Part shown: positions 26,580-44,399 of the stretch, one piece after another | Numbering within the stretch: the stretch's first letter is position 1 | Layout: each line of letters opens with the position of its first letter | Assembly: GCA_965223905.1 (NCBI GenBank) | Contig: CBDCXV010000001.1 | Location: 832,001 to 896,000, forward strand | DNA length: 64,000 bases | Source: Candidatus Latescibacterota bacterium | GTDB lineage: Bacteria > Latescibacterota > UBA2968 > UBA8231 | Direction of reading: 5' to 3' | The notes under the pieces: model-generated | Databases searched by the model: none | The model's input: only the letters and a program-made list of their open reading frames with translations | Told to the model about the DNA's origin: nothing | Made by a program: the position numbers and the translations under genes

Positions 26580-28114
26580 GGCTCACCCCGTCTGATCTGT
26601 TCCCGGCGCATCATGGCCGCGGCGATCCCTGCGTGGGCGCGGGAGGCGGAGCCGGCGATTCGCGGAGCCGCGGCGATCACTGCGGCTTCGTCCAGTCTGC
26701 CGCGGTCGAGGTAGATCTCGACGGCGATGGCGTTCCCGGAAGGGTGGGTGTCATCCTCGAAGGGAATCTGCTCCTCCCATACGGGCAGTGGGGCGCCGGC
26801 GGGCAAGGCGTCCCTGAAGCCGCCGGCCCGGGAATCGTAGAGGTTTTCCTCGGTCCATCTCAACGTGCGTTCCGCTGCTTGAAGGAAACGGTCCTCCCCG
26901 TTCCACCGGTGGGCCCGCCACATGGCGCGGCTCACCAGGAGCTGATCCGTAAGCAGGCCGGAGGCGCAGCCGGCGAGCCGGCAGTGAGCCACCCGGCCGT
27001 CCTCGTCGACCAGCGCCGCCAGCAGCGCCGCCGCCGCGCTTGCCGCCAGCTCCCCCCATCCCCGCTGCTCGAGCTGCTCGGCCGCATCGAGCAGGGCGAG
27101 GACGAGCCGGGCATTGCGGCCGGCGTATGCCGTCCGGTCCGCCCACCAGGCCGCTTTTCCGGTGCCGGTCTCCACGCGTACCTGGCGCCCGTGGAACAGG
27201 CGGCGTTCGCCGTCGTAGAGCGCCCGGCGCACGAAGGCGAGCTGCCTGTCCAGCAGGGGGGTGAAGACCTCCGGGTCCGCCTCGCGGGCGGCGAGCAACA
27301 GCTGCAGCATGCCCGCCTGGTCGGCGGCGTCCCTGGCTCCCGACGGCGTCGTCCAGTCCGGGGTGTGGGAAAACGAGTGTATGCCACCGGCTTCGGCATC
27401 CCACATCGGCGACCGCAGCATGGTTTTTACCGTCGACAGCCACATCTCGCGGGCCGTCTCGTCCCCGGTGAATCTATTGTAGTTCAACAGGAAGTGGAGA
27501 ACCAACAGGCCGGGGAACTTCCCGGAGCCGCCGAAACCCCCGTGCACCGGGTCGTAGTCGGCGGCGACCGCGGCGAACACGTCCGCCGGGGACAGCCGGG
27601 TGCGGCCAGGATCCATCTTCGCCTCGGCTGCCTTTTCAACCAGGACATCGCGCCGTTTTTCGAAGTGGTCGGCCATGTGCATCAGCCAGGTGCGCGCGTT
27701 CCGCGACGGCAGATCGGTGGCCGTCGCTACGGCGCTGCCGTCGGGAAGAAGGAGGGCGAGGGCCGGCCAGCCCCGGGGAGCGAAGCGGCGCGCCAGGTCG
27801 GGGCGCTGGAAGGGATTCACCCGGAAGGCGGTGAATTTCTGCTCGATTAGATAGCGCACCGAGGGGTCGTCGTTGGCGAAAACCCCGTCGGCTCCCTCGG
27901 CGGCGAAGTAGAGCAGCAGGGGCAGATCCCGGTCCTGCGCCCGCTGAAGGGTCTGCCGGTCCCAGGAGTTCCAGGGGATGGCGGCGGAATCCCCTGCCGG
28001 AGCGGCGGCCGCATCCGGCGCCCGTCCGTCCGTTGTGGCGGTGTCTTCGCCGGACTGCCCGCCGCAGGCCAGCATCAGCGCCGGCAGGAGCCACCAGCCC
28101 TGCCGCAGGTTCAT
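26576..28114 (-). CDS. DUF255/YyaL-like thioredoxin + alpha/alpha-barrel protein, predicted lipoprotein
   Basis: Lipobox MLAC, IPWNSW, RPDL..GWP...LLPDG, DPVHGGFGGSGKFP, EDDTHPSGNA. The CxxC motif is absent. Confidence 0.75.
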   Translation of the reverse strand: MNLRQGWWLLPALMLACGGQSGEDTATTDGRAPDAAAAPAGDSAAIPWNSWDRQTLQRAQDRDLPLLLYFAAEGADGVFANDDPSVRYLIEQKFTAFRVNPFQRPDLARRFAPRGWPALALLLPDGSAVATATDLPSRNARTWLMHMADHFEKRRDVLVEKAAEAKMDPGRTRLSPADVFAAVAADYDPVHGGFGGSGKFPGLLVLHFLLNYNRFTGDETAREMWLSTVKTMLRSPMWDAEAGGIHSFSHTPDWTTPSGARDAADQAGMLQLLLAAREADPEVFTPLLDRQLAFVRRALYDGERRLFHGRQVRVETGTGKAAWWADRTAYAGRNARLVLALLDAAEQLEQRGWGELAASAAAALLAALVDEDGRVAHCRLAGCASGLLTDQLLVSRAMWRAHRWNGEDRFLQAAERTLRWTEENLYDSRAGGFRDALPAGAPLPVWEEQIPFEDDTHPSGNAIAVEIYLDRGRLDEAAVIAAAPRIAGSASRAHAGIAAAMMRREQIRRGEP

Positions 28115-28268
28115 GGCGTCGGATTCCCCTGGGGTTCCGTCCCGGCAGCAGATCCGCACCATTCAAACTCCACGGGGAACCTGAGCGGGTCGGGGGAAGA
28201 AACGGCCCTTGGGGCCGGGGAGGTATCGGTGGGACGGAACCCCGACTGCGATGGCGTGAATCTGCCGC

Positions 28269-29853
28269 TCACCCCTGAAATTCAAGGACGTAGGTGTCGG
28301 GGTTCTTCCGGTGCCAGACGATGCGGAAGAGGTCGGGGTATTTCCCGATCGCCGGCACCAGGTAGCGCGACGTCGAGGGGAAGGGAAGCTGGTCGACGAC
28401 GACGAAATCCGCCCTTCTGCTGCGCAGGTCGGCGAGCACGGCGTCGGGATCCTTGAACTTGTAGACGATCGTCCGCCGGCCGGACACTACGTGCATCCAG
28501 AACCCCTTGCGGCAGGAAATCACCGAGTCGGAGGGCAGGTTGTTGCGGATCCACAGGCCGGCGTCGTAGTAGCGCTGCCATCCCGGCTGATACGGCCCGC
28601 GGGCGTACCGGGCCTGGCTCTGCAGTCCGTCGAGCTGCGAGTTGAGCAGGAGCAGCAGGGCGGTGGCCCCCAGAACCGTGGAAAGCGGCCGCCCGGCGAT
28701 GGCGCTGAGCCTCGCGAGGAGGTCGCCGGCGACCCGCACGGCAAAGAACAGCAGCACCGGAATGGCGGGCAGGAGGAAGCGGTCCCCAATCCAGGGCCAC
28801 AGGAACATCAGGCCCAGGAACAGCACCCCGTAAATCCAGATCAGCAGGTTTTCGCGCCTGCGGATGCAGAGGAAGCTGGCGTACAGGGCCAGGGCGACGA
28901 TTGCGAGGGTCACCGGGTTGAAGAGCGACTGGGCTCCAGGAAAGGAGGGCCACAGCGTCTTGGGCATAATGTGGACGAGATAGGCCTGGAGGTTGCCGCC
29001 GAGGCGTTCGATAAAGCCGGCGGCGTCGAGATAGCCGCGGTCGGGATGGTAGGGGTTCACCTGCAGGAACTGGGTCACGTAGACGCCGCCGCGGCCGCTG
29101 AAATGGTTGCGCAGCGACCAGGGCAGCGCCGCAGCGAATGCCCCCGCGGCCAAAACGAGGGCGCGCCGGTACTGCCGGTCGAAGGCGAGGAAAAGCAGGA
29201 CCGCGGCCACCAGCAGGACGCCGACGCTGCGGACGTAGTACGCCCACATCATGCAGATGAACCCCGCGGTCAACCAGGGATTCGTCAGTCCCTCGCGGCT
29301 ACGGGCGCCGCGCTGCACCAGGAACAGGGTTGCCAGCGAAAACAGGGTGTAGGGGATTTCCGACATCACCTGGCTGCCGTACTCGACCAGCTTGGGCTGG
29401 GCCGCGCACAGCAGGGCGGCGGCCCAGGCGGACGCCTCCCCCAGGCAGTCCCTGGCGAGCAGGTAGGCGGCGACAGGGACGCCGGCGAAGAGCACGGCAA
29501 CCAGCCACTTCATCAAGATGAAGTCCCGCACCGGTTCCCCGCCGCCAGCGGCATCCTGTTCAGCGCCGGGGCCGAAGATCCAGGCAAGCGGCGACAGCAT
29601 CAGCGGGACACCCGAAGGGGTACTTCGTCGCCGGCTTCAGGTCCGGGTCGTTGACGTAGTGCAGTCCCTCCCCCTGCGCCAGCGAACGGGCGAGGATGAC
29701 GAACTCGGTATTGTCGCCGCTGAGAGAGAGCTTTTCGTCGAAGCACCAGGCCGCGGCAATGAACCCGACGATCCCCCAGACCGCCGCAACCGCGATGCGG
29801 CCGCGCCGCGAGCCGATCAGCGCCGCGACCTTCGAGATTCCCCCCGCTCTCAG
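28269..29853 (-). pseudogene. GT-C (ArnT/PMT-like) membrane glycosyltransferase split by a +1 frameshift near 29609 (real or sequencing error)
   Basis: N-terminal part (DEKLSLSGDNTEFVILARSLAQGEG...KYPFG) and C-terminal part (MLSPLAW...MSEIPY) are in different frames. Removing one G gives KYPFGFPLMLSP. The start is uncertain. Confidence 0.75.
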
Positions 29854-30596
29854 AAGTCGGCCTCCGCGTTGTCCCGGGGCAGGAAGCCGAGTCCGGCGAT
29901 GGTGTCGCCGAGATCGAAGACGCGGCGGTCGTTGGCGCTGATCGCGTAGGCGAGCAGAAACCGCGCGTCGACGTCGAGGGCGCGGCGGAAGGCCTGCACG
30001 CAGTCGCGGTGACTGAGGTGCATGGCGCGCATGTAGTCCTCGGCGGCGGTGCCCCGCATCATGGCGGCGTCGTTCTGCTTCGTGATCCAGCCGATACGCA
30101 GGCCGATGAAGCGGAGCCCGTGCCGCTCGCTGAAGTACTTGCCGAGGTTTTCGCCGAACAGCTTCGAAACGGCGTAGAGGGAGTCGGGGTTCGGGGGGTC
30201 GGTCAGGCGCAGGTGCCGTCTCCTGGCCGGGTCGAGGGTTTCCGGGGTAGTGGCGAGGGTGTCGCCGTGCTGGGTGTGGTTGGTGGTCGCGAAAACGATG
30301 CGCTCGACGCCGCTGTTGCGGCACTCTTCGAATACCTGGTAGGTCGCTTCGATGTTGTTGTCGCGGACCGAATCCCAGATGGCGTCAGGATTGGGATCGG
30401 CGGCTAGGTGGATGACTGCGTCCAATCCCTGAAAGATGCCCCGCACCTGGCCGCCTTCGGTCAGGTCGACCACGAACGCGGTGCGCGCACCCTCTTCGCG
30501 ATCGAAGCCGATGATCTCGTAGTCGTCGCCGAGGCCGGAGGCGAGGACGCCGCCAATGGTGCCGTTGGCACCGGTAATTCCAATCCGTTTGGCCAA
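29850..30596 (-). CDS. NAD-dependent epimerase/dehydratase (uronate dehydrogenase-like SDR)
   Basis: IGITGANGTIG, VIHLAA, PDSLYAVSKLFGE (YxxxK), LRIG, LSHRDC. TTG start at 30596. Confidence 0.85.
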   Translation of the reverse strand: MAKRIGITGANGTIGGVLASGLGDDYEIIGFDREEGARTAFVVDLTEGGQVRGIFQGLDAVIHLAADPNPDAIWDSVRDNNIEATYQVFEECRNSGVERIVFATTNHTQHGDTLATTPETLDPARRRHLRLTDPPNPDSLYAVSKLFGENLGKYFSERHGLRFIGLRIGWITKQNDAAMMRGTAAEDYMRAMHLSHRDCVQAFRRALDVDARFLLAYAISANDRRVFDLGDTIAGLGFLPRDNAEADF

Positions 30597-30906
30597 ACCA
30601 CGTGCCTTTCCGAGCCGGTAGGAGAGTTGTTGCGACGGGTGTGCCAATGTAGCGATTCGCCCCCCGGCCGCAACGAATCAGCCCCGGGGTGCGCAGGCGG
30701 CCGGCTTGTTTGCGAGGGGTGGGGAATTGCCCAACCTTACGAGCGTTTCCCTGACCACGCCCATGTTTGAGCGTGCTGATCTTCTCCGTATCCGGTTGCA
30801 CTATCCCTTCGTACGTCTGTCCTCGGGACGGGGCGCCGGGATTATCTTTGCTGCCTGTTGATTCCGTCCTCACTCTTGCCTCTGCTTCGAACCACAGGAG
30901 GTCTAG

Positions 30907-31482
30907 ATGACCGTTCACGCACCGCGTTCACACATGACCGCCGAAGAGCTGTTCGATCTGGCGGACGACGACGGTCGATTTGAGCTGGTAGAAGGAGAGC
31001 TTGTCCACATGACCCCGACAGGCGGCACACATGGCGCACTGACGGTTCGCATAGGGCGCCTGCTCGACGAGTATATTGAAGCGCACGACCTCGGCGTCTG
31101 CTGCGGCGCTGAGACTGGGTTCATTCTCCAGCGGGACCCCGACACGGTGCGCGCCCCGGACGCCGCCGTCGTGGTGAAGTCCCGCATTCCCCCCACCGGC
31201 ATCCCCAGCACCTACTGGACGTTTGCTCCCGACCTCGCCGTCGAAGTCGTCTCACCGTCGGACCGCCTCGCCGACGTCCACGTCAAGATCGCCGAGTACT
31301 TCGCCGCCGGGACCCGCCTGGTCTGGCTCGTGGAACCCGAAACCCGGATGGTCCACGTATACCGGTCTCTGCTGCAGGTCGAGGTGGTGGGAACGGAGGA
31401 TGACCTCGAGGGAGGCGATGTGCTGCCTGGGTTCAGCTGTCCGGTGCGGCGGCTCTTCGCCTCGGTTCCTTCAAAGCAATGA
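30907..31482 (+). CDS. Uma2 (DUF820) family PD-(D/E)XK-like endonuclease
   Basis: FELVEGELV.MTP...HG, VRAPDAAV, APDLAVEVVSPSD, KIAEYFAAGTRLVWLVEP, VLPGF. AGGAGG RBS. Confidence 0.93.
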   Translation: MTVHAPRSHMTAEELFDLADDDGRFELVEGELVHMTPTGGTHGALTVRIGRLLDEYIEAHDLGVCCGAETGFILQRDPDTVRAPDAAVVVKSRIPPTGIPSTYWTFAPDLAVEVVSPSDRLADVHVKIAEYFAAGTRLVWLVEPETRMVHVYRSLLQVEVVGTEDDLEGGDVLPGFSCPVRRLFASVPSKQ

Positions 31483-33251
31483 CCCTCGACCTCAGCCTCG
31501 ACTTCGCCCTCACGGAGGATTTCGTCCGGTGGTACTGCGCGGTAATCGGCGCATTCTGGCTTCTTTCTGTCGGGTGGCTGTTCCGCCAAGTTGGTCCCCT
31601 GTGGCTCAAGTTACGCAGGATGAGTAGAGACCTGAAGGATCTGCATGGAGAGGAAGGATTCACTAGCGGATTCGAAGACTACGATCGCAAGGTCAAAGAG
31701 ATCCTTGGCCTGCCGTGGACGGAATTCGTGGAGACTTTGATTCTACCTGAATCTGAGTCTGATGATCCGATTCGCAACACCAGTGAGGTTTCTCGGTACC
31801 TGAACGACGCCACCATCGTTTCTCCCAAGATTTCTTCAGGTTTCTACCAAGCTGTACCAAATCTGCTGACCGGCGTCGGCATCCTCGGTACGTTCCTCGG
31901 TCTGGCCGCCGGGGTCGGTGCGGCAAGTTCCGGTCTTTCTTCCAGCAAACCCGCTGAGATCACCGGGGCTCTACAGCAGCTTCTGGGTGGGGCATCCTTG
32001 GCGTTCTGGACGTCCATTGCCGGCATCTCCGCATCCATCTTGTTCGTGTTAGTCGAACGCATTTCCTCGCGACGTCTCCACGTTGAACTCGACAAGTGGG
32101 TCGGAGCCATCGAATCCCGGCTCGAGCGCGTCACGTCGGAAGGCGTTGCTCTAAAACAACTCGACCAAGCGCAACGCGCGACGACGCAACTCGAACGATT
32201 CAACTCCGAGTTGATATTCTCTCTTGAACAGGCGCTCGAGGAGAAGATCGCGGGCCGTCTGTCCCCGCAACTCGAGCGGCTCCTGGAAGCGGTCGAAGGA
32301 CTACGCGAGGATCGGGCAACCGACAGCGGTCAGATGATCGAACAGGCGCTTGTCCGGTTCACCGATGCGCTTCAGGAAAGGACCGGCTCGCAGTTCGAGG
32401 ATATGGCGGCAACCGTCGACGACCTGAATCGCACCCTCAAGGAATCCGCCGACGCCCAGGCGCAAACGCAGTGCGATGTCCGCGGCGCGCTCGCTTCGGT
32501 CCTGAATGCAGTCAAGACTGCAATGGATACCGGCGCCACGGCCATGACCGAGACGTTGCAACAGTCGCTAGGCGAGGTAACCGGTGTTCTCGCCAGCGCG
32601 TCGGAACAACTGGCGAATCGGCTTACCGCTTCCACCAATGCCGCCGCGGACGAACTCAGGAGCACGCTCGGTTCCGCCAGCCAGGAGCTGGCCAGGACAG
32701 GCACTGAAGCCGCATCGAAGATCACTGGTTCGTTACAGGGCCTGCTGACCGCGGCCACGAGTCTCGAAAAAGCTTCGACGCAGAGCGGGGAATTGCTGTC
32801 CGGCATGAATCAATTCGTCGAGAAGCTCAATGCATTGCGCGGAACCATCGAGTCGACGCACCAGGAAATAGTAAAAGTCACGGAACCTGTCGGAAGTGCG
32901 GCCCGCGACATGCGTGAGTCCAGTGAAATGAGCGCGAACGCACTGGCAAAGACGAGCGATCTCGTCGGTCGTGTCGAGACTTCGGTCAACGCACTGGAAC
33001 GGCATCAGCAGGAGGTCGCAACTGCCTGGACCGAATACCAGAAACGCTTCGAGGGCATCGACACCTCACTCGCCGAGGTGTTCCGGCAGTTCGAAGAAGG
33101 CTTGTCGAGGTATTGCGTACAGGTGAAGGAGTTCGCCAACGAGCTGGACAAGACGACTTCGAATACAGTCCAACAGCTTGCGAGCGCAACCGCCGAACTC
33201 AGCGGGGCGATCGAGGACCTGATCCCGCGTCTTCCGGGATCGCCGCAATGA
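31479..33251 (+). CDS. zorA: Zorya anti-phage protein ZorA (MotA-like membrane domain + long helical tail)
   Basis: Three TM segments including VPNLLTGVGILGTFLGL and LLGGASLAFWTSIAGI, then about 400 aa of Ala/Ser/Thr/Leu-rich coiled coil. Followed by zorB/C/D homologues. Confidence 0.92.
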   Translation: MTLDLSLDFALTEDFVRWYCAVIGAFWLLSVGWLFRQVGPLWLKLRRMSRDLKDLHGEEGFTSGFEDYDRKVKEILGLPWTEFVETLILPESESDDPIRNTSEVSRYLNDATIVSPKISSGFYQAVPNLLTGVGILGTFLGLAAGVGAASSGLSSSKPAEITGALQQLLGGASLAFWTSIAGISASILFVLVERISSRRLHVELDKWVGAIESRLERVTSEGVALKQLDQAQRATTQLERFNSELIFSLEQALEEKIAGRLSPQLERLLEAVEGLREDRATDSGQMIEQALVRFTDALQERTGSQFEDMAATVDDLNRTLKESADAQAQTQCDVRGALASVLNAVKTAMDTGATAMTETLQQSLGEVTGVLASASEQLANRLTASTNAAADELRSTLGSASQELARTGTEAASKITGSLQGLLTAATSLEKASTQSGELLSGMNQFVEKLNALRGTIESTHQEIVKVTEPVGSAARDMRESSEMSANALAKTSDLVGRVETSVNALERHQQEVATAWTEYQKRFEGIDTSLAEVFRQFEEGLSRYCVQVKEFANELDKTTSNTVQQLASATAELSGAIEDLIPRLPGSPQ

Positions 33252-34102
33252 TCAGCGAATCGAGGCCGAACCCGGCCGAGGGCCAGGGTGGGCACAACTA
33301 CCTTGCCAGCGTCAGCGACCTTGTATCGGCCCTCATTTTCGTCTTCATCATCATGCTGGCCGTGTTCGCGTATCAACTCGCTAACGTCACCAGGAAACAA
33401 GAAGAGAGAGTGGAAGATCTGGAAGCCGAAGAAAAGACGCGCACTCGCATGCTACGGGACATCAAGAGCCGGCTCGAGAAAGCGGGCATGCGGGTCGAAG
33501 TGCTGGCCGACCAGGGTGTCCTGCGGCTGTCGGACAATGCCATCAACTTTCCGTCAGGTAGTGAAACTCCAGTTCTCGAGCATCACGTAAACGTCGGACG
33601 CCTCGCCCAAGCCATCGCCGAGGTCGTACCATGCTACGTCTCCCCTGGAGGGGCTGTCTCCACGTTGCATAATGGCGGTGAGGCGGTGTCTTACTGTCAG
33701 TCCCCTGCCGACCCCTCAACGTACGACTGCAGGGACCAGGAGTATCCATGGCTTCTCGAGACCTTGCTGATTGAGGGGCATACCGACGACGTGCCGGTCG
33801 CGGCGGGCAATCGCTTCCGAGACAACCTCGAGCTTTCGTCGATGCGGGCGGCGACCGTGCACCGTATGATCGTCGCGTGTGAGCCAGGTGTGGAACGCCT
33901 TCTGAGCACCGAAGACTACCCCGTTCTAAGCACCAGCGGATACGGGTATACCCGGCCAGCAACCCGTGACCCCGGGCGTACCGGCGAGAACCGGCGCATT
34001 GATCTGCGATTCTTGCTCGAGCCTCCCGAGGGGGCGCTGCACCAGAACGAACCGGATGTCCAGACCGATGTCCGCGAACGGTACGGAGAGGGGACGCCAT
34101 GA
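33248..34102 (+). CDS. zorB: Zorya protein ZorB (MotB/OmpA-like)
   Basis: TM ASVSDLVSALIFVFIIML with the conserved Asp, IEGHTD, NLELSSMRA, ENRRIDLRF. ATGA overlap with zorA. Confidence 0.92.
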   Translation: MISESRPNPAEGQGGHNYLASVSDLVSALIFVFIIMLAVFAYQLANVTRKQEERVEDLEAEEKTRTRMLRDIKSRLEKAGMRVEVLADQGVLRLSDNAINFPSGSETPVLEHHVNVGRLAQAIAEVVPCYVSPGGAVSTLHNGGEAVSYCQSPADPSTYDCRDQEYPWLLETLLIEGHTDDVPVAAGNRFRDNLELSSMRAATVHRMIVACEPGVERLLSTEDYPVLSTSGYGYTRPATRDPGRTGENRRIDLRFLLEPPEGALHQNEPDVQTDVRERYGEGTP

Positions 34103-35604
34103 AGGCTCCTTCCCTGAAGGATTCCCTGGAGCGCTGGACGGGTTTTCCGAAGCTTGAGCGCTCGTTCGAGCCGCAGAGAACGCGGAAAGCAGCCGCGGTG
34201 GTGGAGAAGAACCTTGGCGACGTCCAGCCGAAAAAACCATCGCTCTACGACCTGCAGACTCTGCATCGCCGAGTCGCGGAAACATGGCGTCGCGATCGCG
34301 CGCTCTCACAGCTCGCGCCACGCGACCTGCGTCGACTGCCGTGGGTGCTGTTCTACCCGGCGCAAGCCGACCGACGGGATTGGCTGGGGCGAAACCCGCC
34401 CCTCGTGCAGGAATACGGTCGCTGGCTGTCCGCTGGTCGCCGAACGCGGTCGGTGCTGGCGCTGCTCCACGAGTTCCTGCGTGTTTACCCCGTCAATCTG
34501 CCGACATTCGAAGATCTGCGCCGGCTGCTGCGGAAAACCTTAGAAGACAGTTCCTCTCCGCCTCCGTCTCTGCAAAAATGGCAGCCACGGTGCCTGGATT
34601 TGGGGTTCCTCCGAAAGGACGGCGACCTGTCGTTGGTGGGGAAGCTGGTTTCAGCCACTGATGTCGTTGACGACTTCTTGGTCCAAGCTGGGCTTGAAGC
34701 CGGACTCGCAAGGTGTGGGTTTCTAAAGTCAGGTATACGCAAGTACCTCCCGAACGTCAGCACCCGGCTGACGCGGGACAGCATCGACGACACGCAGCTC
34801 GCACGAGTGCTCACGCTTTTCGAATGCGAGGGCAAACTGCGTTTCCAGTCAGTTCGTGTAGAGATCGCGTCTGCACTTCTCAGTCCCTTCATGGATACAC
34901 CTCCGCCCACAGATACGAAGGAACAGCTACAATCGTTTTTCCTGCGCCATTTTGGCGACCCTCGGCTGCCTTCAGGGAAGCACCGATGGTATGGTGTCGG
35001 CGAGGAGGTTCGGCATGTAGTCACGAGATGGCTTGTGAAGGAGACGCTTGATGAGTTCATCCGGCTGATCAAGGAAACAGCCCTCGACCAACATTGGCGA
35101 TACCGAGAAAAATTCTGGATGGCTTGCTTCCACCAGGACATGATTGAGGATGCATGGTTCGTCCTGGGTTCGCGGGCACGGATACTGTTGAGGCAGCTGG
35201 AGGAGCACAATCCAATGGAAACGGGAAGACTTCGCGGCGCATCATCCGAACAGTCAGTATTGCTCTTGCGTATGTCTGGAGTGACCGTCGCCGAGTGGAG
35301 CCATAACGGTAGCTGCCGGTTCTGGCTCGATGGCAATCGGGACGCGCCCAAGTTATACCAGGGAAGGGTCTATTCCGGCGATGAGTTGAGACGCGGATCG
35401 GATTTTTCCCAACGGCACGGGGGCAGCGACCGGGGCGAATGGCAAAACCAGATCGCGCAATGGCTGCGGGAAAACACGGGCGTGTCAATAGCTCGTGCCA
35501 AGTACATGCCGGACGACCTATCTGGTAACATCCATAGGAGACAAAATGTCAGGCGACATCGCGTTCGAAAGATCGTCAGACGGCCTGATCGTCCGGGTCG
35601 GTAG
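34099..35604 (+). CDS. zorC: Zorya protein ZorC (EH-signature domain)
   Basis: FGDPRL...W, R..FW, VAEWSHNGSCRFW, H...WQ. Located between zorB and zorD. Confidence 0.9.
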   Translation: MKAPSLKDSLERWTGFPKLERSFEPQRTRKAAAVVEKNLGDVQPKKPSLYDLQTLHRRVAETWRRDRALSQLAPRDLRRLPWVLFYPAQADRRDWLGRNPPLVQEYGRWLSAGRRTRSVLALLHEFLRVYPVNLPTFEDLRRLLRKTLEDSSSPPPSLQKWQPRCLDLGFLRKDGDLSLVGKLVSATDVVDDFLVQAGLEAGLARCGFLKSGIRKYLPNVSTRLTRDSIDDTQLARVLTLFECEGKLRFQSVRVEIASALLSPFMDTPPPTDTKEQLQSFFLRHFGDPRLPSGKHRWYGVGEEVRHVVTRWLVKETLDEFIRLIKETALDQHWRYREKFWMACFHQDMIEDAWFVLGSRARILLRQLEEHNPMETGRLRGASSEQSVLLLRMSGVTVAEWSHNGSCRFWLDGNRDAPKLYQGRVYSGDELRRGSDFSQRHGGSDRGEWQNQIAQWLRENTGVSIARAKYMPDDLSGNIHRRQNVRRHRVRKIVRRPDRPGR

Positions 35605-38600
35605 AGATCACACGCTCCCCGTACATGAGTGGACATCGCGTGGATCGCCCGGAGCTGGTGCGCTGATTCGATTGCGTGACGACGGCGGCGCGGTCGAGCG
35701 CGAAAACGGTAGTGCGCTGTGGGTTTCCTGGAAAAGCGTCGCCGAACTGACGTCCGACGAACTGCGGTACACAGGTTTTCCCGATGCCGCTCCCTTTGCG
35801 CTTGAGGTTGTTGCGACCGGCGCCATTCACGACTCCGATTTCGAAATTCGCTGCGGCTACATCCGGGATGGCCGGCGCGTCCTCGGCGTTCAGCGAGAGG
35901 GCGCGTGGCTGCACGCCGGCGGCGAAGATTTTGTGCTGCTCGATCCCCTGTACTCTGTCGCCGAAGCCATTGACCAATTCAACCAGCCGGAAAAAAAAGA
36001 TCTTGAATCGAAGATGCTCCGCTGGGGACGGATTGCGGAGATGCTGCCTGCCGACGCCGTTGTCGGCGACGACAACTTGCGTTCACTAAGAATCTTCGTG
36101 GCGTCCAGCTTCGAGCTCGAACCGTTTGTCAACGACGTCGGAGAACCGGATTTCGATCCGGTCGTTGGCAGGCGGGAGACTCGTATCACCGAGGCCGGTG
36201 AAGAGGATCAGGTGTTTGTCCGCGCCTTGCCGCTCGCCCGGCAGAGAGAGTTTGCCAGACGTTTCCGCGGCCTGTCACGCGTGCAGCATCGGTACTTGGC
36301 CGGGGGCGGGAGCTACGTCGTGCTGACGCCGGAGATCGAACGGGCTCTCGGCGTGGTGCGGCGTGCCCAAGACGGGTGTCCTGACGAGCGCCGCGACTTC
36401 TTGCGGAACGTCTCAGGATACTTGCGAGGAGCGTTCGATGACGGCGACGGCGATGAGGTCGACCTCGACAGCATCTTCAGCGACGAAGGCTTGAGCGAGC
36501 GGGTCAGGGGCATCGGCATCTGGGTCGACAAGGTGCTCCCCTGGATCAAGCTGGCGAAAGAACCGTGGCTGCCGCCGGAGGAATTCGGGATTCTCATCGA
36601 TGGACGGCGCGTTGTCATCCAACCTGAAGAAATAGAAAGGGTGCACGATCAAGTCAGGGAGGCGATGGAGCGGGGCGAGTCGAACGTTCAGGTCAGGATC
36701 GGTAACGAGCCCATCGAAATCCCTGTGGACCCGAACACCGTCAGCGCCCTTGAGGGATTGGTCTCTCGGGTACCCCAGAAGCCGAAACCCCATCCGAAGA
36801 CCAAGCAAACAGACGGCGATGAACCGGTCGCACCCGAAGATCCAGATCAGGTCTTGGAGGTCATCGACAACTTGGATGAAATCCAATTCCGTCGCGAACG
36901 CAGGCCATGCAGGCCCGGCATTTCGGAGGCCGTCCCCGCTTTACAGACCAAACTTCTGCCGCATCAACAGAAAGGCCTCGCGTGGCTGCAACGTCACTGG
37001 GAGGCCGGTAACTGGGGCGCCCTGCTCGCCGACGATATGGGCCTCGGGAAAACGCTCGAAGCATTGGCCTTTCTCTCATGTCTAGTGCAACACTCCGAAA
37101 CCGAGGGTCTGCCACAACTACCTGTCCTGGTCGTCGCTCCCACCGGTCTGCTCCGGAACTGGAAGGACGAACACGACAAACACCTGTCCGGTGCCGGACT
37201 CGGCCGCGTCGTCGAAGCGCATGGCAGTGCCTTGCGGGATCTCAGAAAAGGACCCTCCGGCGGCAGCGGCGAGCTCGCCCGCGGACAACCGTTCCTGGAC
37301 CTCCAGCCCCTGAAGACCGCCGACTGGGTGCTCACCACTTATGAAACCCTTCGTGACTATCAGCACAGCTTCGGCCGAGTCCGCTGGCGCGCAGGCATCT
37401 TCGACGAAGCCCAGAAGATCAAGAATCCTGGCGCCCGCGTAACCGATGCCGCACTCGCCATGAACATCGATTTCGCTCTGCTGATGACCGGCACCCCGGT
37501 GGAAAATCGCCCGGCGGATATCTGGTCTATGCTCGATCGGGCAGAACCGGGGATGTTCGGGACACTGAAGGATTTCAGCCAGCGGTACGAAGCGACAGGC
37601 CCTGACGGTGATGCGGCGCTTTCCGAGTTACACGGTTCGCTGACGCAACAGGCGGACGAAACCGCCCCGGCGCTGATGCTACGGCGGCTCAAGGAGGACC
37701 ATGTCCCGGAACTGCCCGAAAAGAAAGTGCACCATCGCGTCGTGGAGATGCCGCCGCTCCAGGCCGAGGCGTACGAACAGATCGTGCGGAACGGCGGTGA
37801 CGGCAACATGCTTCAGACGCTTCATCGCCTTCGAAGCATCTCGCTGCACCCCGAGGCTCCGGGCGACCTCGACCTCGAGAAGTACATCCAAGCGTCGGGG
37901 CGGCTTTCCGAGACGTTCCGGATTCTGGATGAAATTGAAGACCGCGAACAGAAAGCCCTGCTCTTCGTCGAGGCGCGCTGGATGCAGGACTTCTTGGTGG
38001 GAGCGCTGAGACGCCGTTTTTCATTATCCGAAGACGTACTGGTCATCAACGGGACGGTGGCAGGCAGGGTCCGCAAAGCCCGCGTCGACACGTTCCAAGA
38101 CCGGGCCGGGTTCGACGTAATGATTCTGTCGCCGCGCGCCGGCGGCGTCGGACTGACGCTGACGGCAGCAAACCATGTCATTCACCTCTCGCGCTGGTGG
38201 AACCCGGCGGTCGAGGATCAGTGTACCGACAGGGTCTTTCGTATCGGCCAGTGGCGGACGGTGCACGTATACCTTCCCATCGCCCGGCATCCGAGCTTCG
38301 GAGACTACAGTTTCGACATCAAGCTCGATAGCCTGATGGAAGGAAAACGGGAGATGAACCGCCGCGTCCTTGCGCCGACCGCCGCGACGAAAGAGGACGT
38401 GGGTGATCTCTATCGAACCACCATGACGGAAGCGCGAAATAGCGCCTCGGGACCGCCCCAGCCAGTGGACCAGACCAACATTGATCAACTGGAGCCTGAA
38501 GCCTTCGAAGAGTGGGTGCTGGGACAGCTTCAAGCGGCTGGTTATGACACGAGACGCACCCCTCCGAGTGGCGATTGTGGAGCTGACGGGCTGGCGGTTT

Positions 38601-38863
38601 CCCGTGCTGGCGGGGATCAGCACACCATCGTGGTTCAGTGCAAACACACCCAGCAGCAGGACGCCAAGTGCGGCCGGACCGCCGTCGAGGAAGTGCTGCG
38701 ATCAATTTCCGCGTACGAGGACGCGATTGTTGGCGAGCCGCGGCCAATGGTCGTGACGAATGCGGCCGGCTTCACCAACGATGCCATGCTCTTGGCAAAA
38801 CGGGAGGGTGTGCGGTTGATCGCACGCGGCCGCCTGCCGCAACTTCGAACTGTGATTGAATAA
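35546..38863 (+). CDS. zorD: Zorya protein ZorD (SNF2 ATPase with C-terminal Mrr-like nuclease)
   Basis: LLADDMGLGKT, DEAQ, TGTPVEN, WWNPAVEDQCTDRVFRIGQ, and C-terminal FEEWV...GY...SGDCGADG...VVQCK. AGGAG before ATG at 35546. Confidence 0.93.
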   Translation: MSGDIAFERSSDGLIVRVGRDHTLPVHEWTSRGSPGAGALIRLRDDGGAVERENGSALWVSWKSVAELTSDELRYTGFPDAAPFALEVVATGAIHDSDFEIRCGYIRDGRRVLGVQREGAWLHAGGEDFVLLDPLYSVAEAIDQFNQPEKKDLESKMLRWGRIAEMLPADAVVGDDNLRSLRIFVASSFELEPFVNDVGEPDFDPVVGRRETRITEAGEEDQVFVRALPLARQREFARRFRGLSRVQHRYLAGGGSYVVLTPEIERALGVVRRAQDGCPDERRDFLRNVSGYLRGAFDDGDGDEVDLDSIFSDEGLSERVRGIGIWVDKVLPWIKLAKEPWLPPEEFGILIDGRRVVIQPEEIERVHDQVREAMERGESNVQVRIGNEPIEIPVDPNTVSALEGLVSRVPQKPKPHPKTKQTDGDEPVAPEDPDQVLEVIDNLDEIQFRRERRPCRPGISEAVPALQTKLLPHQQKGLAWLQRHWEAGNWGALLADDMGLGKTLEALAFLSCLVQHSETEGLPQLPVLVVAPTGLLRNWKDEHDKHLSGAGLGRVVEAHGSALRDLRKGPSGGSGELARGQPFLDLQPLKTADWVLTTYETLRDYQHSFGRVRWRAGIFDEAQKIKNPGARVTDAALAMNIDFALLMTGTPVENRPADIWSMLDRAEPGMFGTLKDFSQRYEATGPDGDAALSELHGSLTQQADETAPALMLRRLKEDHVPELPEKKVHHRVVEMPPLQAEAYEQIVRNGGDGNMLQTLHRLRSISLHPEAPGDLDLEKYIQASGRLSETFRILDEIEDREQKALLFVEARWMQDFLVGALRRRFSLSEDVLVINGTVAGRVRKARVDTFQDRAGFDVMILSPRAGGVGLTLTAANHVIHLSRWWNPAVEDQCTDRVFRIGQWRTVHVYLPIARHPSFGDYSFDIKLDSLMEGKREMNRRVLAPTAATKEDVGDLYRTTMTEARNSASGPPQPVDQTNIDQLEPEAFEEWVLGQLQAAGYDTRRTPPSGDCGADGLAVSRAGGDQHTIVVQCKHTQQQDAKCGRTAVEEVLRSISAYEDAIVGEPRPMVVTNAAGFTNDAMLLAKREGVRLIARGRLPQLRTVIE

Positions 38864-38890
38864 CACCCAGGTTCGTTTTCTGCCATACAG

Positions 38891-40402
38891 ATGTCCGAAT
38901 CCCCCAACCTCCTCTACATCCACTCCGATCAGCACAGTCCGTTCGTCGCCGGCTGCTGCGGCGACACGCTGGTGCGGACGCCCCATCTCGATGCTCTGGC
39001 TGCGGAGGGGGTCCTGCTCGAAAACGCGTACTGCCCCTCGCCGATCTGCGTGCCGTCGCGGATGTCGATGCTCAGCGGCCGGCACCCGTTCGAAAACCGC
39101 GTCTGGACCAACAGCCACATCCTCAGCTCGGCGATACCGACGCTCGCCCACGCCATGGGAGCGGCGGGGTACCGGCCGGTGCTGATCGGGCGCATGCATG
39201 CGCTGGGGCCGGATCAGCTTCACGGCTACGCCGAGCGTCTCGTGGGAGACCACGGCTCAAACCACCTCGGAGGCGACGGCGGCACCGACCGCGGCGACCT
39301 CCAGGGCTGCGCCGGCCCGGCGCGCGTCAGTCTGACCAACTCGGGACCGGGCCAGAGCTCCTACCAAGTTCACGACGAGGACGTCACCGCGGCGGCGGTC
39401 GACTACCTGAACCGCATCGGAGTGAAGAGGCGTTCCGGAGTGGACCGCTCCCCTTTTTCGATATCGGTCGGGTTCATGCTGCCGCACCAGCCGTTCGTGG
39501 CGCGCCGCGAGGATTACGAGCTGTACGAAGGGCGGATGACGATGCCGCGCACACCCGAGCCGTTCCGCGACGATCTGCACCCGCACATCGCCCGCTGGCG
39601 GCAGGCTACCGGCACCGTCGAGGTTCCCGACGAGGAGGTACTCCGAGCCCGCACGGCGTACTGGGGGCTGGTGACGCGGATGGACGCGATGATCGGCGAG
39701 ATCCTCGAGGCACTGCGCCGCAACGACCTGGCCGGCAACACCCTGATCCTCTACACCTCCGACCACGGCGAGCAGGTCGGCGAGCACGGCCTGTGGTGGA
39801 AACAGACGTTCTACGAGGACTCGGTGAAGGTCCCGGCCATACTGTCCTGGCCCGGAGGCCTGCCGCAGGGAGGGCGCTGCGACCGCGTCGTCAGCTCGCT
39901 CGGACCTAAACGGGACCATGCTCGAGGCCCTCGGGGCCCCGCCGCTACCCCATTCCAGGGGACGCAGCATGCTGGCGCTGCTGCGCGACCCCGAGGCTCC
40001 CTGGGAAGACGTCGCCTACTCGGAGTTCTGCCTCGACGGCGCCGGGTCCGGGGGTCCGTTTGCCGGGCACGGGGTGTTCCAGCGCATGATCCGCCGGGGG
40101 GAATGGAAGCTCAACTACTACCACGGCATGCCCTGCCAGCTGTTCAACCTGCGCGACGACCCGCGCGAAATGCAAGCCCCCAAGGAATCGAGGACCGCGC
40201 CGCCGATCCCGGGTGCGGGGAGATCCGCGACGAGTTGCTCAACCGGGTGCTCCTGGACTGGGACCCGGAGTGGGTTATGGCCCGCATGGCGGCGCTGCGG
40301 GAAGACCAGAAGATCCTCGGGGCCTGGGCGAGGCAAGTGAAGCCGCCGGACCGCTACCGGTGGCCCCTGCTCAGCGGCATGGATTACCTCGATGAGGACT
40401 GA
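38891..40402 (+). CDS. Formylglycine-dependent sulfatase (choline-sulfatase-like), with an internal segment displaced by two compensating frameshifts
   Basis: PNLLYIHSDQH, CVPSR (CxPxR), YTSDHGE, KQTFYEDSVKVP. The sulfatase-like segment (WKLNYY..QLFNLRDDP.E) lies in the alternative frame at about 39903-40190. Confidence 0.85.
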   Translation: MSESPNLLYIHSDQHSPFVAGCCGDTLVRTPHLDALAAEGVLLENAYCPSPICVPSRMSMLSGRHPFENRVWTNSHILSSAIPTLAHAMGAAGYRPVLIGRMHALGPDQLHGYAERLVGDHGSNHLGGDGGTDRGDLQGCAGPARVSLTNSGPGQSSYQVHDEDVTAAAVDYLNRIGVKRRSGVDRSPFSISVGFMLPHQPFVARREDYELYEGRMTMPRTPEPFRDDLHPHIARWRQATGTVEVPDEEVLRARTAYWGLVTRMDAMIGEILEALRRNDLAGNTLILYTSDHGEQVGEHGLWWKQTFYEDSVKVPAILSWPGGLPQGGRCDRVVSSLGPKRDHARGPRGPAATPFQGTQHAGAAARPRGSLGRRRLLGVLPRRRRVRGSVCRARGVPAHDPPGGMEAQLLPRHALPAVQPARRPARNASPQGIEDRAADPGCGEIRDELLNRVLLDWDPEWVMARMAALREDQKILGAWARQVKPPDRYRWPLLSGMDYLDED

Positions 40403-40557
40403 CCTCTCTTATGACCTGGGAGGAGTTCAGGAGCCGTCCGTGCGATTATTGCGCTTTACCGTAGCAGAAACCGCCTGACCACAGTCAGTTTGCTCTGATA
40501 TGCTCATTGCCGGCAGGTATCGCCATGCCTTTCGGCCGAACCCGTGGAGACACTCAC

Positions 40558-41211
40558 ATGGCACTCGAGGTGTACGACTTCCGCAACGACGAGCACATCT
40601 GCCAGATGCTGGTGCGTCCCGAGATCCGCTGCCGCTTCATGAGGGCGGAGCCCGGCACCGTGCAGACGGTGCAGCACAGCCACGACCTGGGCCACGAGAT
40701 ATTCCTGATCCTGCAGGGGCGCTGCGAGTTCCAGGTCTCCGGCGACACCGCGGTGCTGGGGCCGGGGCAGCTGTGCCTTGCCCTGGCGGACGAACCGCAC
40801 AAGATCCGCGTCGTCGGCGACGAGCCGGTGATCATGTACCTGTCGGTGACGCCCCATATCCAGCCGACACATACCGGACGCAACGACGACGGCACCCGGC
40901 ACCCGCTGAGGTTTGTGCCCAGCAGCTCGTACGGCGTCGAAACCGACACCGCCACGCCTGCCGCAGAGCTGGTCGACCGCTTCGTCGCCGCCTCGGCAGA
41001 CTACGCGCGAACCGTGCGCGCCGCCGCGGACAGACAGTCCGAGGTGGCAGCCGGGCTGAAGGCCGCCCTGGCTGCCGGCGACTTCGACAAAGTCGAGGAG
41101 CTTCGCAACCAGCTGTGGGAAGGGGTGTACCGGGGATTCAAGGAGATCCACGCGCTCGGCGACCTGTGGAACACGGTGGCCCCGCGCATCAGCCGCTTCG
41201 ACGGGGAGTGA
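40558..41211 (+). CDS. Cupin domain protein with helical C-terminal extension
   Basis: HSHDLGHEIFLILQG...LGPGQ......EPH metal-binding cupin motifs. GGAG RBS before ATG at 40558. Confidence 0.8.
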   Translation: MALEVYDFRNDEHICQMLVRPEIRCRFMRAEPGTVQTVQHSHDLGHEIFLILQGRCEFQVSGDTAVLGPGQLCLALADEPHKIRVVGDEPVIMYLSVTPHIQPTHTGRNDDGTRHPLRFVPSSSYGVETDTATPAAELVDRFVAASADYARTVRAAADRQSEVAAGLKAALAAGDFDKVEELRNQLWEGVYRGFKEIHALGDLWNTVAPRISRFDGE

Positions 41212-41218
41212 GGGGGAC

Positions 41219-42283
41219 ATGGCTGCCGTCAGAATCGGCGTCGTCGGGTGCGGCGCCATCGCCCAGGTCCATCACCTGCCCAACCTCGCCCTGCTGCAGG
41301 ACCTGTTCGAGGTCCCGGTGGTCTGCGACATCTCACCGGACCTCGCCGAAGCGGTCGCATCGCAGTTCCACGTTCCGCGATACGTCACCGATTACCGCGA
41401 GCTGCTGGACGCCGGCGTCGACGCCGTGCTGCTGTGCCACGGCGACCCCAAGACCGAGGCAGGGCTCGCGGTGCTGGAGGCGGGGAAGCACCTGTTCATC
41501 GAAAAACCGGTCTGCTTCACCCTGTCGGACGCCGATGCCATGATCGCCGCGGCGCGCAGGGCCGGAGTGGTGGCGCAGGCGGGGTACATGAAGGCCCACG
41601 ACCCTGCCTTCGAGCTGCTCGCGCGGGAGGTCGAGTCGATGGGGCCGGTTCGCTTCATCCAGGTCAACCATCTGCACACCGACAACAGCCATCACCTGGT
41701 GCACTTCGGGGTCAGGCGGGCAGGGGGCCTGCCTTCCGCGGCGAGCGTCAAGAGAGCCGACGATGTCGCCGAAGCCCTGGGAAGCGGAATCCCTGAGGAG
41801 GCGAGGCGGATCTTCTTCGTCCTCGCCGGCAGCATGATACACGATCTCTACGGTCTGAGGATTCTGTTCGGGCAGCCGGAACGGGTCGTGAGCACGGAGG
41901 TCTGGAACGGGGGCTTCGGTGTAACCGCAATCCTCGCGTACGCCTCAGGGGCCCGCTGCGCGGCGACCTGGGTGGAGCTTTCGGGGATCAAGGAGTTCGT
42001 CGAGACCCTCGAGGTCTACGGCGACGACCGCGGCGCCGTGCTGTCCTACCCGACGGGGTTCTCGCGCGGCATCCCGTCGCAGCTGGAATTCCGCGGCGTC
42101 GACGGCGAGGGCCGCCCCTTTCGCCGGCAGCCGTTCGTCGACTGGGAGATCCCGTTCGTGCGCGAGCTTCGCCACTTCCACGCCTGCATCGCGGAAGGAG
42201 TCGAGTGCCGTACATCGCTGGAGGGGGCGCGGGACGACGTCGCCCTCGTGATCGACATCGTGCGCGCCTACCTCGACCGGTGA
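41219..42283 (+). CDS. Gfo/Idh/MocA family oxidoreductase
   Basis: IGVVGCGAIAQVHH, GKHLFIEKP, SMIHD, ELRHFHACI. Confidence 0.92.
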   Translation: MAAVRIGVVGCGAIAQVHHLPNLALLQDLFEVPVVCDISPDLAEAVASQFHVPRYVTDYRELLDAGVDAVLLCHGDPKTEAGLAVLEAGKHLFIEKPVCFTLSDADAMIAAARRAGVVAQAGYMKAHDPAFELLAREVESMGPVRFIQVNHLHTDNSHHLVHFGVRRAGGLPSAASVKRADDVAEALGSGIPEEARRIFFVLAGSMIHDLYGLRILFGQPERVVSTEVWNGGFGVTAILAYASGARCAATWVELSGIKEFVETLEVYGDDRGAVLSYPTGFSRGIPSQLEFRGVDGEGRPFRRQPFVDWEIPFVRELRHFHACIAEGVECRTSLEGARDDVALVIDIVRAYLDR

Positions 42284-42479
42284 GGGGCCCCGGAGAACGG
42301 TTCAACACCTGCGGCTCCAACCTAAACCCACGGCACCGGCCCGACCCCTGCGAGACCAACAGGCGGCATTCCGGGGGGTCCGTACAGAGCAGCTCCGACT
42401 TTCAGAAATCGACCTCTGGAGCACACGAACCCTCCATCCGTTTCGCCCGGGCCACCGGCTCCCAGGCGAGGCCGGAACT

Positions 42480-42770
42480 TCAGATCCGTTCCTTCAACCG
42501 GCCCCACGAGCTCGGCGCCACGTTCGTTCCTTCCGGTGAGGGATACAACCCGGCGCCGATGTAATAGTCCCCACCCAGAATCTCGACGGGTGCGGCGTAG
42601 CTCACCTTGGGGGATTCGTCGGCACCTCTATCGCCGGATTGTCCCAGAGGTATTCGACGAACCCTCCTCCGGATTTTGCCGCGGGGATCAGTTCCTGCAC
42701 GGCCATATGACCCCGTTGCTGTCCACCTGGTCGATGTTGTTGGTGCCTTCGCGCGCGGGAACGGCGGCGA
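42480..42770 (-). pseudogene. Remnant of a Cache-domain (sCache_2-like) protein with a C-terminal SWGxxK motif
   Basis: Across two frameshifts it reads EGTNNIDQVDSNGV / AVQELIPAAKSGGGFVEYLWDNPAIE / ADESPKVSYAAPVEILGGDYYIGAGLYPSPEGTNVAPSSWGRLKERI*. Confidence 0.7.
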
Positions 42771-42793
42771 GACGCACTGGGCCCAGCGGTGTC

Positions 42794-43800: not shown

Positions 43801-44185
43801 ATGCGAAACATCGCTATTCTGATCCTGCCCCTGGTCGCCGTGGAGGTTGATCCGCCTTCGTCGAGTCGGCCAGCGGCCTTCCCAACGAGACGGAAGTGCG
43901 GCGGAACCTGGCCGGCATGGCGACGGTTGCGCGGGCCAGGCTGCGCGACCGGTTGCCAGGCTACCAAGTGCTCCTCGGGGCGGACTGCGCCATCGGGGAA
44001 ACTCTGGTCCTCGGCATCCGGGGGCGCCGGGTCGGCATCGGGAACTTTCAGGGAGGGGGAGCCTACGACCTGCTGCGCAGCCACGTCACCAATCCGCGGC
44101 TCGACGGCAGGGGCCGGTGACCTACCGGGTGAGGATTCCGGACACGGTCTTCCTCCTCGGCATCGGCTTGACCCATTACCTCTGA
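43801..44185 (+). pseudogene. Possible frameshifted remnant of a secreted/outer-membrane protein
   Basis: Signal-peptide-like MRNIAILILPLVAV, a protein-like middle segment in another frame, and a beta-strand-like end VFLLGIGLTHYL*. Confidence 0.35.
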
Positions 44186-44195
44186 GGGAATATAG

Positions 44196-44223
44196 TTGAA
44201 GACATTTTGTAAATATGTATACA
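44196..44223 (+). promoter_or_regulatory. Putative promoter of the mcrBC-like pair
   Basis: AT-rich patch containing TTGAAG, 16-nt spacer, TATACA. Confidence 0.35.
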
Positions 44224-44399
44224 CAGGATACTTGAAGGGAGGGATATCCCAATCCTCGCAAGGCCCCTTGCATTTGGCGGCGGCAGCCGTCCAAAGAAAC
44301 CAACAGGCCCTGATTTCGCAGTTTTCGACCGACGAAGCATTGAGGGCGAATCTGCGCCCACAACCGTGAGAGAGGTCCAACAACCCATGGAAAACGAAC

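Follow-up and report, generated by a model that had tools for sequence, protein, structure and literature searches.

Zorya defence systems are divided into types I–III only in those parts available to us of the two closest descriptions (Hu et al., Nature 2024, PMC11946911; Mariano et al. 2025, PMC11890865). The first of them assigns nuclease activity of ZorD to its Snf2-like C-terminal half, and the second one cites an earlier “Mrr-like” description of this protein. Here we analyze a Zorya locus found in a 64,000-nucleotide (nt) stretch of the genome of an uncultured Candidatus Latescibacterota bacterium (assembly GCA_965223905.1, contig CBDCXV010000001.1, forward strand positions 832,001–896,000; hereafter “the window”), in which the genes zorA–zorD are headed by an overlapping gene of the Uma2 family. 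A literature search, with supplementary files outside its range, found no publication dealing with Zorya and Uma2 together, no function for any Uma2 member among the matches listed, and no mention of PDC-S03, the single-gene PADLOC candidate to which this gene belongs. The original prediction, made from the letters of the window alone, was right in regarding Uma2 as absent from the described Zorya components. We consider it most likely (probability about 0.55) that this nuclease gene is autonomous and was captured by a lineage-specific Zorya operon, at whose head it probably sets the expression of zorA without being a core component of the system.

Five genes follow each other head to tail on the same strand in the order Uma2–zorA–zorB–zorC–zorD, occupying positions 30907–38863. 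The features of the locus are as follows:

30752..38889, + strand, whole block: Uma2 and zorABCD, with about 155 nt of DNA ahead of them and 26 nt behind
30896..30901, + strand, Uma2 ribosome-binding site (RBS) AGGAGG, 5 nt ahead of ATG, by direct reading of the sequence
30907..31482, + strand, Uma2, 191 amino acids (aa), Pfam PF05685
31479..33251, + strand, zorA, 590 aa, PADLOC ZorA1 PDLC00605
33248..34102, + strand, zorB, 284 aa, PADLOC ZorB1 PDLC00610
34099..35604, + strand, zorC, 501 aa, Pfam EH_Signature, PADLOC ZorC1 PDLC00622
35546..38863, + strand, zorD, 1105 aa, PADLOC ZorD1, Pfam SNF2-rel_dom and Helicase_C
38480..38839, + strand, Mrr_cat domain fused at the C-terminus of ZorD, Pfam Mrr_cat

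The five-gene order, the AGGAGG site, the ATGA junctions and the lack of a Shine–Dalgarno sequence before zorA, all noticed in the original prediction, were confirmed. Overlaps of the ATGA type connect Uma2 with zorA (31479–31482), zorA with zorB (33248–33251) and zorB with zorC (34099–34102), and direct reading revealed no GGAG-like or other Shine–Dalgarno-like motif ahead of the zorA ATG. The open frame of zorD begins at GTG 35495; its start is most likely the ATG at 35546, which stands behind AGGAG and gives a 59-nt overlap with zorC. The G+C content in third codon positions is 0.77 for Uma2 and 0.66–0.71 for zorA–zorD, being higher (0.81–0.89) in the flanking genes.

The distribution of this arrangement was estimated by two scans of genome contigs, by two phylum-wide searches, covering 168 Latescibacterota and 401 Acidobacteriota genomes, and by one metagenome scan. 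They gave 21 loci (designated below by L or G with a number), the window included, with ZorA 42–100% identical to that of the window; ZorC of this type was found in 10 of the 168 Latescibacterota genomes, and the metagenome scan added only two distant Zorya loci, neither of them with Uma2. An intact Uma2 gene overlapping the start of zorA was registered in 4 of the 21 loci (the window, L002, L003 and L005). In five others a 3′ remnant of Uma2 abuts zorA, as detected by nhmmer with a profile built from the nucleotide sequences of intact Uma2 copies (E-values 8e-59 for L006, 6e-46 and 6e-33 for G062, 4e-23 for L004, 1e-18 for L007 and 7e-7 for L009). No Uma2 was detected in the remaining 12 (L001, L008, G347, G265, L067, L068, L069, L070, L072, L073, L076 and L077), where the upstream sequence examined comprised only 413 nt for L070, 1184 nt for L076 and 996 nt for L077. 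All nine loci with Uma2 or its remnant belong to Latescibacterota, and the 12 without it are L001 plus 11 loci from outside this phylum. Upstream of zorA homologues, where the original prediction had proposed to look for Uma2 enrichment, an overlapping junction or a remnant is thus present in 9 of 10 loci inside the phylum and in none of the 11 loci beyond it. Of the closest zorA homologues, which would lack Uma2 if that prediction were refuted, the closest full-length one, L001 (88% identity), does lack it, and L002, L003 and L005 have it. Left out of these counts were L010–L013 and L074 (a zorA fragment only); the Streptococcus matches L010–L013 are short coiled-coil noise. Uma2 remnants perceived by eye ahead of zorA in L008 and L069 found no support in the search with the nucleotide profile and were dropped. 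Another Zorya of type I in the same phylum (G107/L052, ZorA 26% identical) is divergent, belongs to a separate clade and has no Uma2.

In a tree of concatenated ZorA–ZorD sequences from 18 loci (all except L002, L076 and L077) the nine Latescibacterota loci make one clade with a support of 100 in the Shimodaira–Hasegawa-like approximate likelihood ratio test (SH-aLRT), and eight of these nine carry Uma2 or its remnant, as opposed to none of the nine outgroup loci from Acidobacteriota and Rhodothermales. Genes preceding zorA in the outgroup are all different (OsmC, cytochrome c, transposase, glycosyltransferase and others). The linkage of Uma2 with Zorya is lineage-specific, old and of a single phylogenetic origin. 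The three loci of the tree with intact Uma2 are early-branching lineages of two subclades, and the simplest history compatible with this topology would be one Uma2–zorA fusion at the base of the clade, after which Uma2 was lost in L001 and decayed in a subclade of five members.

Comparison with close relatives demonstrates that in this genus the five genes are a single presence/absence unit, gained or lost together, because the sister species G109 (same genus, 85–88% nt identity) lacks the whole block: sequences corresponding to window positions 28039–30751 and 38890–42772 are only 149 nt apart there, and tblastn at this empty site gave no match to Uma2 and none to Zor proteins. Uma2 is therefore not a resident gene at this locus. 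Another member of the genus, L002, has the same block without window positions 32747–38016; this 5.27-kb internal deletion fuses codon ~423 of zorA to codon ~825 of zorD and leaves Uma2 intact. Across the clade three chromosomal contexts were encountered: after an epimerase gene (the window, L002 and L001), near the gene of 5-enolpyruvylshikimate-3-phosphate (EPSP) synthase (L003) and after the gene of a thiamine pyrophosphate (TPP) enzyme (L004, L005, L006 and L009). Between contexts similarity of DNA begins just 12–51 nt ahead of the Uma2 ATG.

Antitoxin-like open reading frames of the Phd/YefM type lie just 3′ of zorD in L005 (L047:12354 onward) and 3′ of Uma2 in L015 (L015:4364-5806), and a gene with GmrSD_N and HNH domains, resembling type IV restriction, occupies L021:4234-6246, where related genomes carry Zorya. 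The antitoxin-like frames hint that this spot is a small defence/toxin–antitoxin hotspot.

Separation of the two parts was observed in both directions. Among the 32 Uma2 loci closest to that of the window (51–91% identity) zor genes follow in three, all of them already known from the survey, and no Zor gene lies within 3 kb of the other 29, which means that this Uma2 subfamily is not restricted to Zorya. Conversely, intact Uma2 does not accompany this Zorya lineage wherever the latter is intact: it is found in 4 of the 21 loci, with a remnant in 5 and nothing detected in 12. The next-closest five loci are syntenic with Zorya-bearing ones and have intact Uma2 with no Zorya beside it (L015 and L017 in the EPSP context; L018, L020 and L021 in the TPP context). 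L017 matches the genome of L003 at 92–94% to the left and right of a gap that has exactly the size of zorABCD, and no close ZorD was found anywhere in the four genomes searched (L015, L017, L018 and L020). Since about 20–25 nt resembling, by eye, the first codons of zorA persist directly after the Uma2 stop codon at the Zorya-less sites, their state suggests that Zorya has been deleted there. Together with L002, where Zorya has the internal deletion, this makes six loci with intact Uma2 and a deleted or missing Zorya. On the other side, all four zor frames are open without intact Uma2 in L001, L004, L006, L007, L009 and G062, and the ratio of nonsynonymous to synonymous substitution rates (dN/dS) for zor genes in five of these six is 0.13–0.31, with a narrower range of 0.13–0.22 also obtained for loci where Uma2 is decayed or missing, as in Uma2-bearing loci. 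For Uma2 itself dN/dS is 0.12–0.32 in all 45 pairs compared, whether Zorya is present or not, which indicates purifying selection. Thus, neither part needs the other one to be kept by selection, because each stays intact and constrained where its partner is gone or decayed.

The product of the Uma2 gene matches Pfam PF05685 with an E-value of 2.7e-36 and a score of 125.1 bits (curated cut-off 27), residues 13–180 covering profile positions 2–171 of 172, i.e. the full length, and the PADLOC profile PDC-S03 with 2.1e-22. Its solved relatives by sequence are 9y1l (the best, 2.3e-14), 3ot2, 1wdj and 6okh. Every invariant column of a 27-sequence alignment is preserved, including the acidic residues E26, D85, D109 and E113, among which those of the putative active site of a PD-(D/E)xK fold may lie; the protein may be regarded as a putative nuclease of this fold. 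Copies that stand, or formerly stood, ahead of zorA have about six extra C-terminal residues running into the zorA start; many relatives end in “...RLFP”. Homologues at 51–72% identity are solitary genes, with toxin–antitoxin, restriction, HNH and transposase genes, as well as housekeeping ones, for neighbors. Uma2 occurs in 93 of the 168 Latescibacterota genomes, with 1–19 matches in each, often as tandem arrays, while the 7.9-Mb genome of the window has four matches corresponding to about three genes (the gene described here, the rest being clustered on a different contig), and the only match in the genome of L005 lies ahead of zorA.

Arrays of 3–5 tandem Uma2 copies were seen at G000:C11:2106947-2108070 (the window's own genome), G090:C1:3998395-4001753, G087:C1:3168233-3170845 and G097:C1:629980-631992. 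In the DNA run X1 the summed contig depth over the 3′ part of Uma2 (31203–31503) is about 74 against 11–14 nearby. One low-depth contig of this run (2.7) joins position 31287 to 38769 with 22 other letters between them, and this joint could come from a Zorya-less relative or from an assembly artefact.

All features of a type I Zorya that can be checked in sequences are present, and the type I assignment of the original prediction is now supported by PADLOC type I profiles for each of the four zor genes and by Pfam domains in ZorC and ZorD. ZorA (PADLOC ZorA1, 2e-51) is a MotA/ExbB-like membrane subunit with two strong hydrophobic segments, beginning at residues ~128–131 and ~172–175, and a subsequent helical tail of about 390 aa with weak apolipoprotein-like matches. 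ZorB (ZorB1, 4.1e-63) is a MotB-like anchor with an OmpA-type C-terminal domain, for which the Pfam match (2.9e-5, 24.8 bits) is under the cut-off of 27.2; the Asp of its motif “SVSDL” is just ahead of the hydrophobic helix and may be the equivalent of D26 of EcZorB (named in the available text of PMC11946911). ZorC matches EH_Signature (PF15611) in full length with 8e-49 and ZorC1 with 1.4e-120. ZorD (ZorD1, 4.5e-294; SNF2-rel_dom, 3.7e-49, plus Helicase_C) is a Snf2-type ATPase, in which the Walker A motif “GLGKT” and the “DEAQ” box are invariant across 47 ZorD homologues, as are D1014 and Q1031-C-K1033 of the C-terminal PD-(D/E)xK domain Mrr_cat (8.5e-18). We regard this locus as a standard Zorya of type I, for which protection against phages can be predicted.

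Two peculiarities concern zorC. This gene looks mosaic: ZorC of the window (34099–35604) and of L001 (L048:8542-10026) are 65% identical with a synonymous divergence (dS) of 0.94, while ZorA, ZorB and ZorD of the same pair are 88% identical with dS of 0.21–0.35. Since ZorC is far more diverged than the other three proteins, an exchange of zorC within the operon is suggested. In a metagenome-assembled genome of Vicinamibacteria (L067:12597-17510, + strand) zorC and zorD make a single open frame of 1638 aa, and a database protein of equal length, P0050, also combines EH_Signature, SNF2, Helicase_C and Mrr_cat.

Of the 18 loci of the tree, 11 have a Mrr domain that is missing, truncated or disrupted, and inactivation of this domain recurs right at the junction with the Snf2 core. 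The ways are different: a stop codon in L004, another one at a neighboring position in L008, a stop-rich insertion of about 200 nt in L007 and clean deletions in L006, L009 and G062. Joint loss of Uma2 and Mrr, striking in the first 10 loci, was rejected as a rule. Mrr is intact without Uma2 in L001, L067, L068 and L072, so its loss is frequent in this lineage generally and does not demonstrate dependence on Uma2.

Based on these data one can propose the following scenario. A single event at the base of the branch that Latescibacterota form in this Zorya lineage would have placed Uma2 and Zorya in one transcription unit, and from then on the five genes would have been acquired and lost jointly. 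Because zorA has no RBS of its own and begins inside the stop codon of Uma2, ribosomes finishing Uma2 may restart on zorA, thus coupling translation of the two genes. Decayed copies would fit this proposal: in all five, no less than the final 75 nt of Uma2 survive immediately ahead of zorA, which is compatible with a translational restart at this 3′ end or with an expression signal inside it. In trans, Uma2 would have its own selected function, plausibly that of a stand-alone defence or DNA-processing nuclease, and the Zorya machine would be independent of it. Judging from the homologous system of E. coli, ZorA and ZorB would make a membrane motor sensing perturbation of the envelope, which may recruit DNA-binding ZorC and the Snf2-type nuclease ZorD, here with an additional Mrr-type nuclease domain. 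The supposition of the original prediction that Zorya adopted expression signals of a resident Uma2 is therefore favored in a modified form, as a shared unit with no obligate functional tie, and its “resident” part is contradicted by the empty site of G109. Some observations weigh against this scenario. A scan for sigma-70 promoters and terminators gave no promoter-like site on the plus strand, with counts at the level of shuffled sequences. Two RNA-seq libraries labelled as sponge metagenome, which may also contain DNA, yielded short contigs matching Uma2 and zor genes (one identical to Uma2 at 30908–31130, others spanning parts of zorA), and none of them bridges the junction at 31479. The Uma2/zorA overlap has been kept across two bacterial families and all three contexts, and a tight five-gene unit is also what is expected of a real accessory gene. 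Finally, loss of Uma2 in one subclade was followed by several inactivations of the ZorD Mrr domain, which differ in kind, and this could hint at a functional link between the two nucleases.

The last points would also be accommodated if Uma2 were a genuine, though optional, fifth component of a Zorya variant of Latescibacterota, either an extra effector nuclease recruited by the activated ZorAB motor or a regulator of ZorC/ZorD, produced in a fixed ratio to ZorA by means of translational coupling. The start/stop overlap with zorA devoid of its own RBS, linkage preserved since the ancestor of two families in three contexts, behavior of the five genes as one presence/absence unit relative to the sister species, and intact invariant acidic residues in a gene under purifying selection all agree with such a role, for which type II Zorya offers a precedent, since a small HNH nuclease, ZorE, is described as its effector in the available text of PMC11890865. 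At least three separate ways of Mrr inactivation after the decay of Uma2 in one subclade point in the same direction. However, Zorya remains intact and constrained without Uma2 in six Latescibacterota loci and in all nine outgroup loci of the tree, Uma2 is equally constrained without Zorya in six loci, and four loci with intact Mrr and no Uma2 deprive the co-loss of generality. The extra effector or regulator defining a variant, as conceived in the original prediction, found no direct support as an effector, and we consider participation of Uma2 in the system rather unlikely. Its more specific version, in which Uma2 is an optional second effector or gatekeeper nuclease, coupled to ZorA and working with the Mrr domain of ZorD, is to be treated as unlikely; if it were true, loss of Uma2 would relax or reverse selection on Mrr and repeated inactivation of this domain in the Uma2-less subclade would follow.

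An alternative of another kind would make the tie genetic instead of biochemical, Uma2 genes serving as homology “landing pads” for recombinational exchange of defence cassettes, Zorya among them. Duplicated Uma2 ends are what recommends it. L007 has, besides the 3′ remnant ahead of zorA, a second 3′ fragment (1e-40) after zorD (L055, reverse complement, 8548–8760), so that direct repeats flank Zorya, and behind this fragment stands the sequence which in Zorya-less L018 and L020 comes after Uma2. In L004 a full Uma2 is succeeded by ParE-like and DUF4268 genes, a 132-nt Uma2 remnant and zorA; G062 likewise has an upstream copy in addition to the zorA-abutting remnant; and in L021 a full Uma2 precedes a second remnant, broken at the same point as that of L006, and the GmrSD_N/HNH gene. 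Persistence of zorA-start-like nucleotides at Zorya-less sites and variability of the spot after Uma2 between syntenic genomes are also in line with such exchange. Nevertheless, neither a recombinase gene nor a repeat-bounded element was seen in the block, resemblance of the empty sites to the 5′ end of zorA is short and judged by eye only, and the empty site of G109 has no Uma2 at all, so a landing pad was unnecessary there. The 3′ duplications could result from recombination between Uma2 copies, and tandem duplication with subsequent decay explains them equally well; we regard exchange via Uma2 as quite improbable. As for adjacency by mere chance, which the original prediction allowed for, abundance of the family in the phylum (more than half of the genomes, up to 19 matches, tandem arrays) could make it imaginable. 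It is rejected because Uma2 is scarce in the window genome, the sole match of the L005 genome being precisely the one before zorA, and because the junction or its remnant recurs in other genomes and contexts, namely in 9 of the 10 Latescibacterota loci, those on the tree forming one clade. The chance explanation thus has a next to negligible probability, and capture of an autonomous Uma2 gene at the head of the operon is the reading we prefer.

A feature apart from the locus is the local decrease of G+C content to 0.53 at window positions 44000–46000, against 0.65–0.70 around.

If the preferred reading is correct, a defence operon can fuse to an autonomous gene next to it and become dependent on the translation signals of the latter, whereupon the fused block moves and decays piece by piece, and tight overlap within an operon is not in itself proof that genes are functional partners. 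If, on the contrary, Uma2 is a working part, it would represent a fourth effector arrangement of Zorya and the first functional context for the large Uma2 family.

Among described systems the locus is closest to type I Zorya of E. coli NCTC9026, as presented in the available text of PMC11946911, with which it shares four genes in the same order, PADLOC type I profiles, a long-tailed MotA-like ZorA, MotB/OmpA-like ZorB, EH-signature ZorC and ZorD with Walker A and DEAQ motifs. It differs from this system in that the operon is headed by Uma2 overlapping zorA, ZorA is not as long (590 aa), an uncultured Latescibacterota bacterium is the host and a clear Mrr_cat domain is present at the C-terminus of ZorD; the main text of that paper nowhere uses the word “Mrr”. 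With the Uma2 family (PF05685, formerly DUF820; PDC-S03; structures 9y1l, 3ot2, 1wdj and 6okh) the first gene shares a full-length profile match and a size of ~185–191 aa, and is distinguished from it by the C-terminal extension into the zorA start. Type II Zorya (ZorABE), as far as it is described in the available text of PMC11890865, similarly encodes the ZorAB motor together with a small stand-alone nuclease gene; unlike its HNH nuclease ZorE, however, Uma2 of the window has another fold, is located upstream instead of downstream and is encoded alongside ZorC and ZorD, and the rest of the system can be kept without it.

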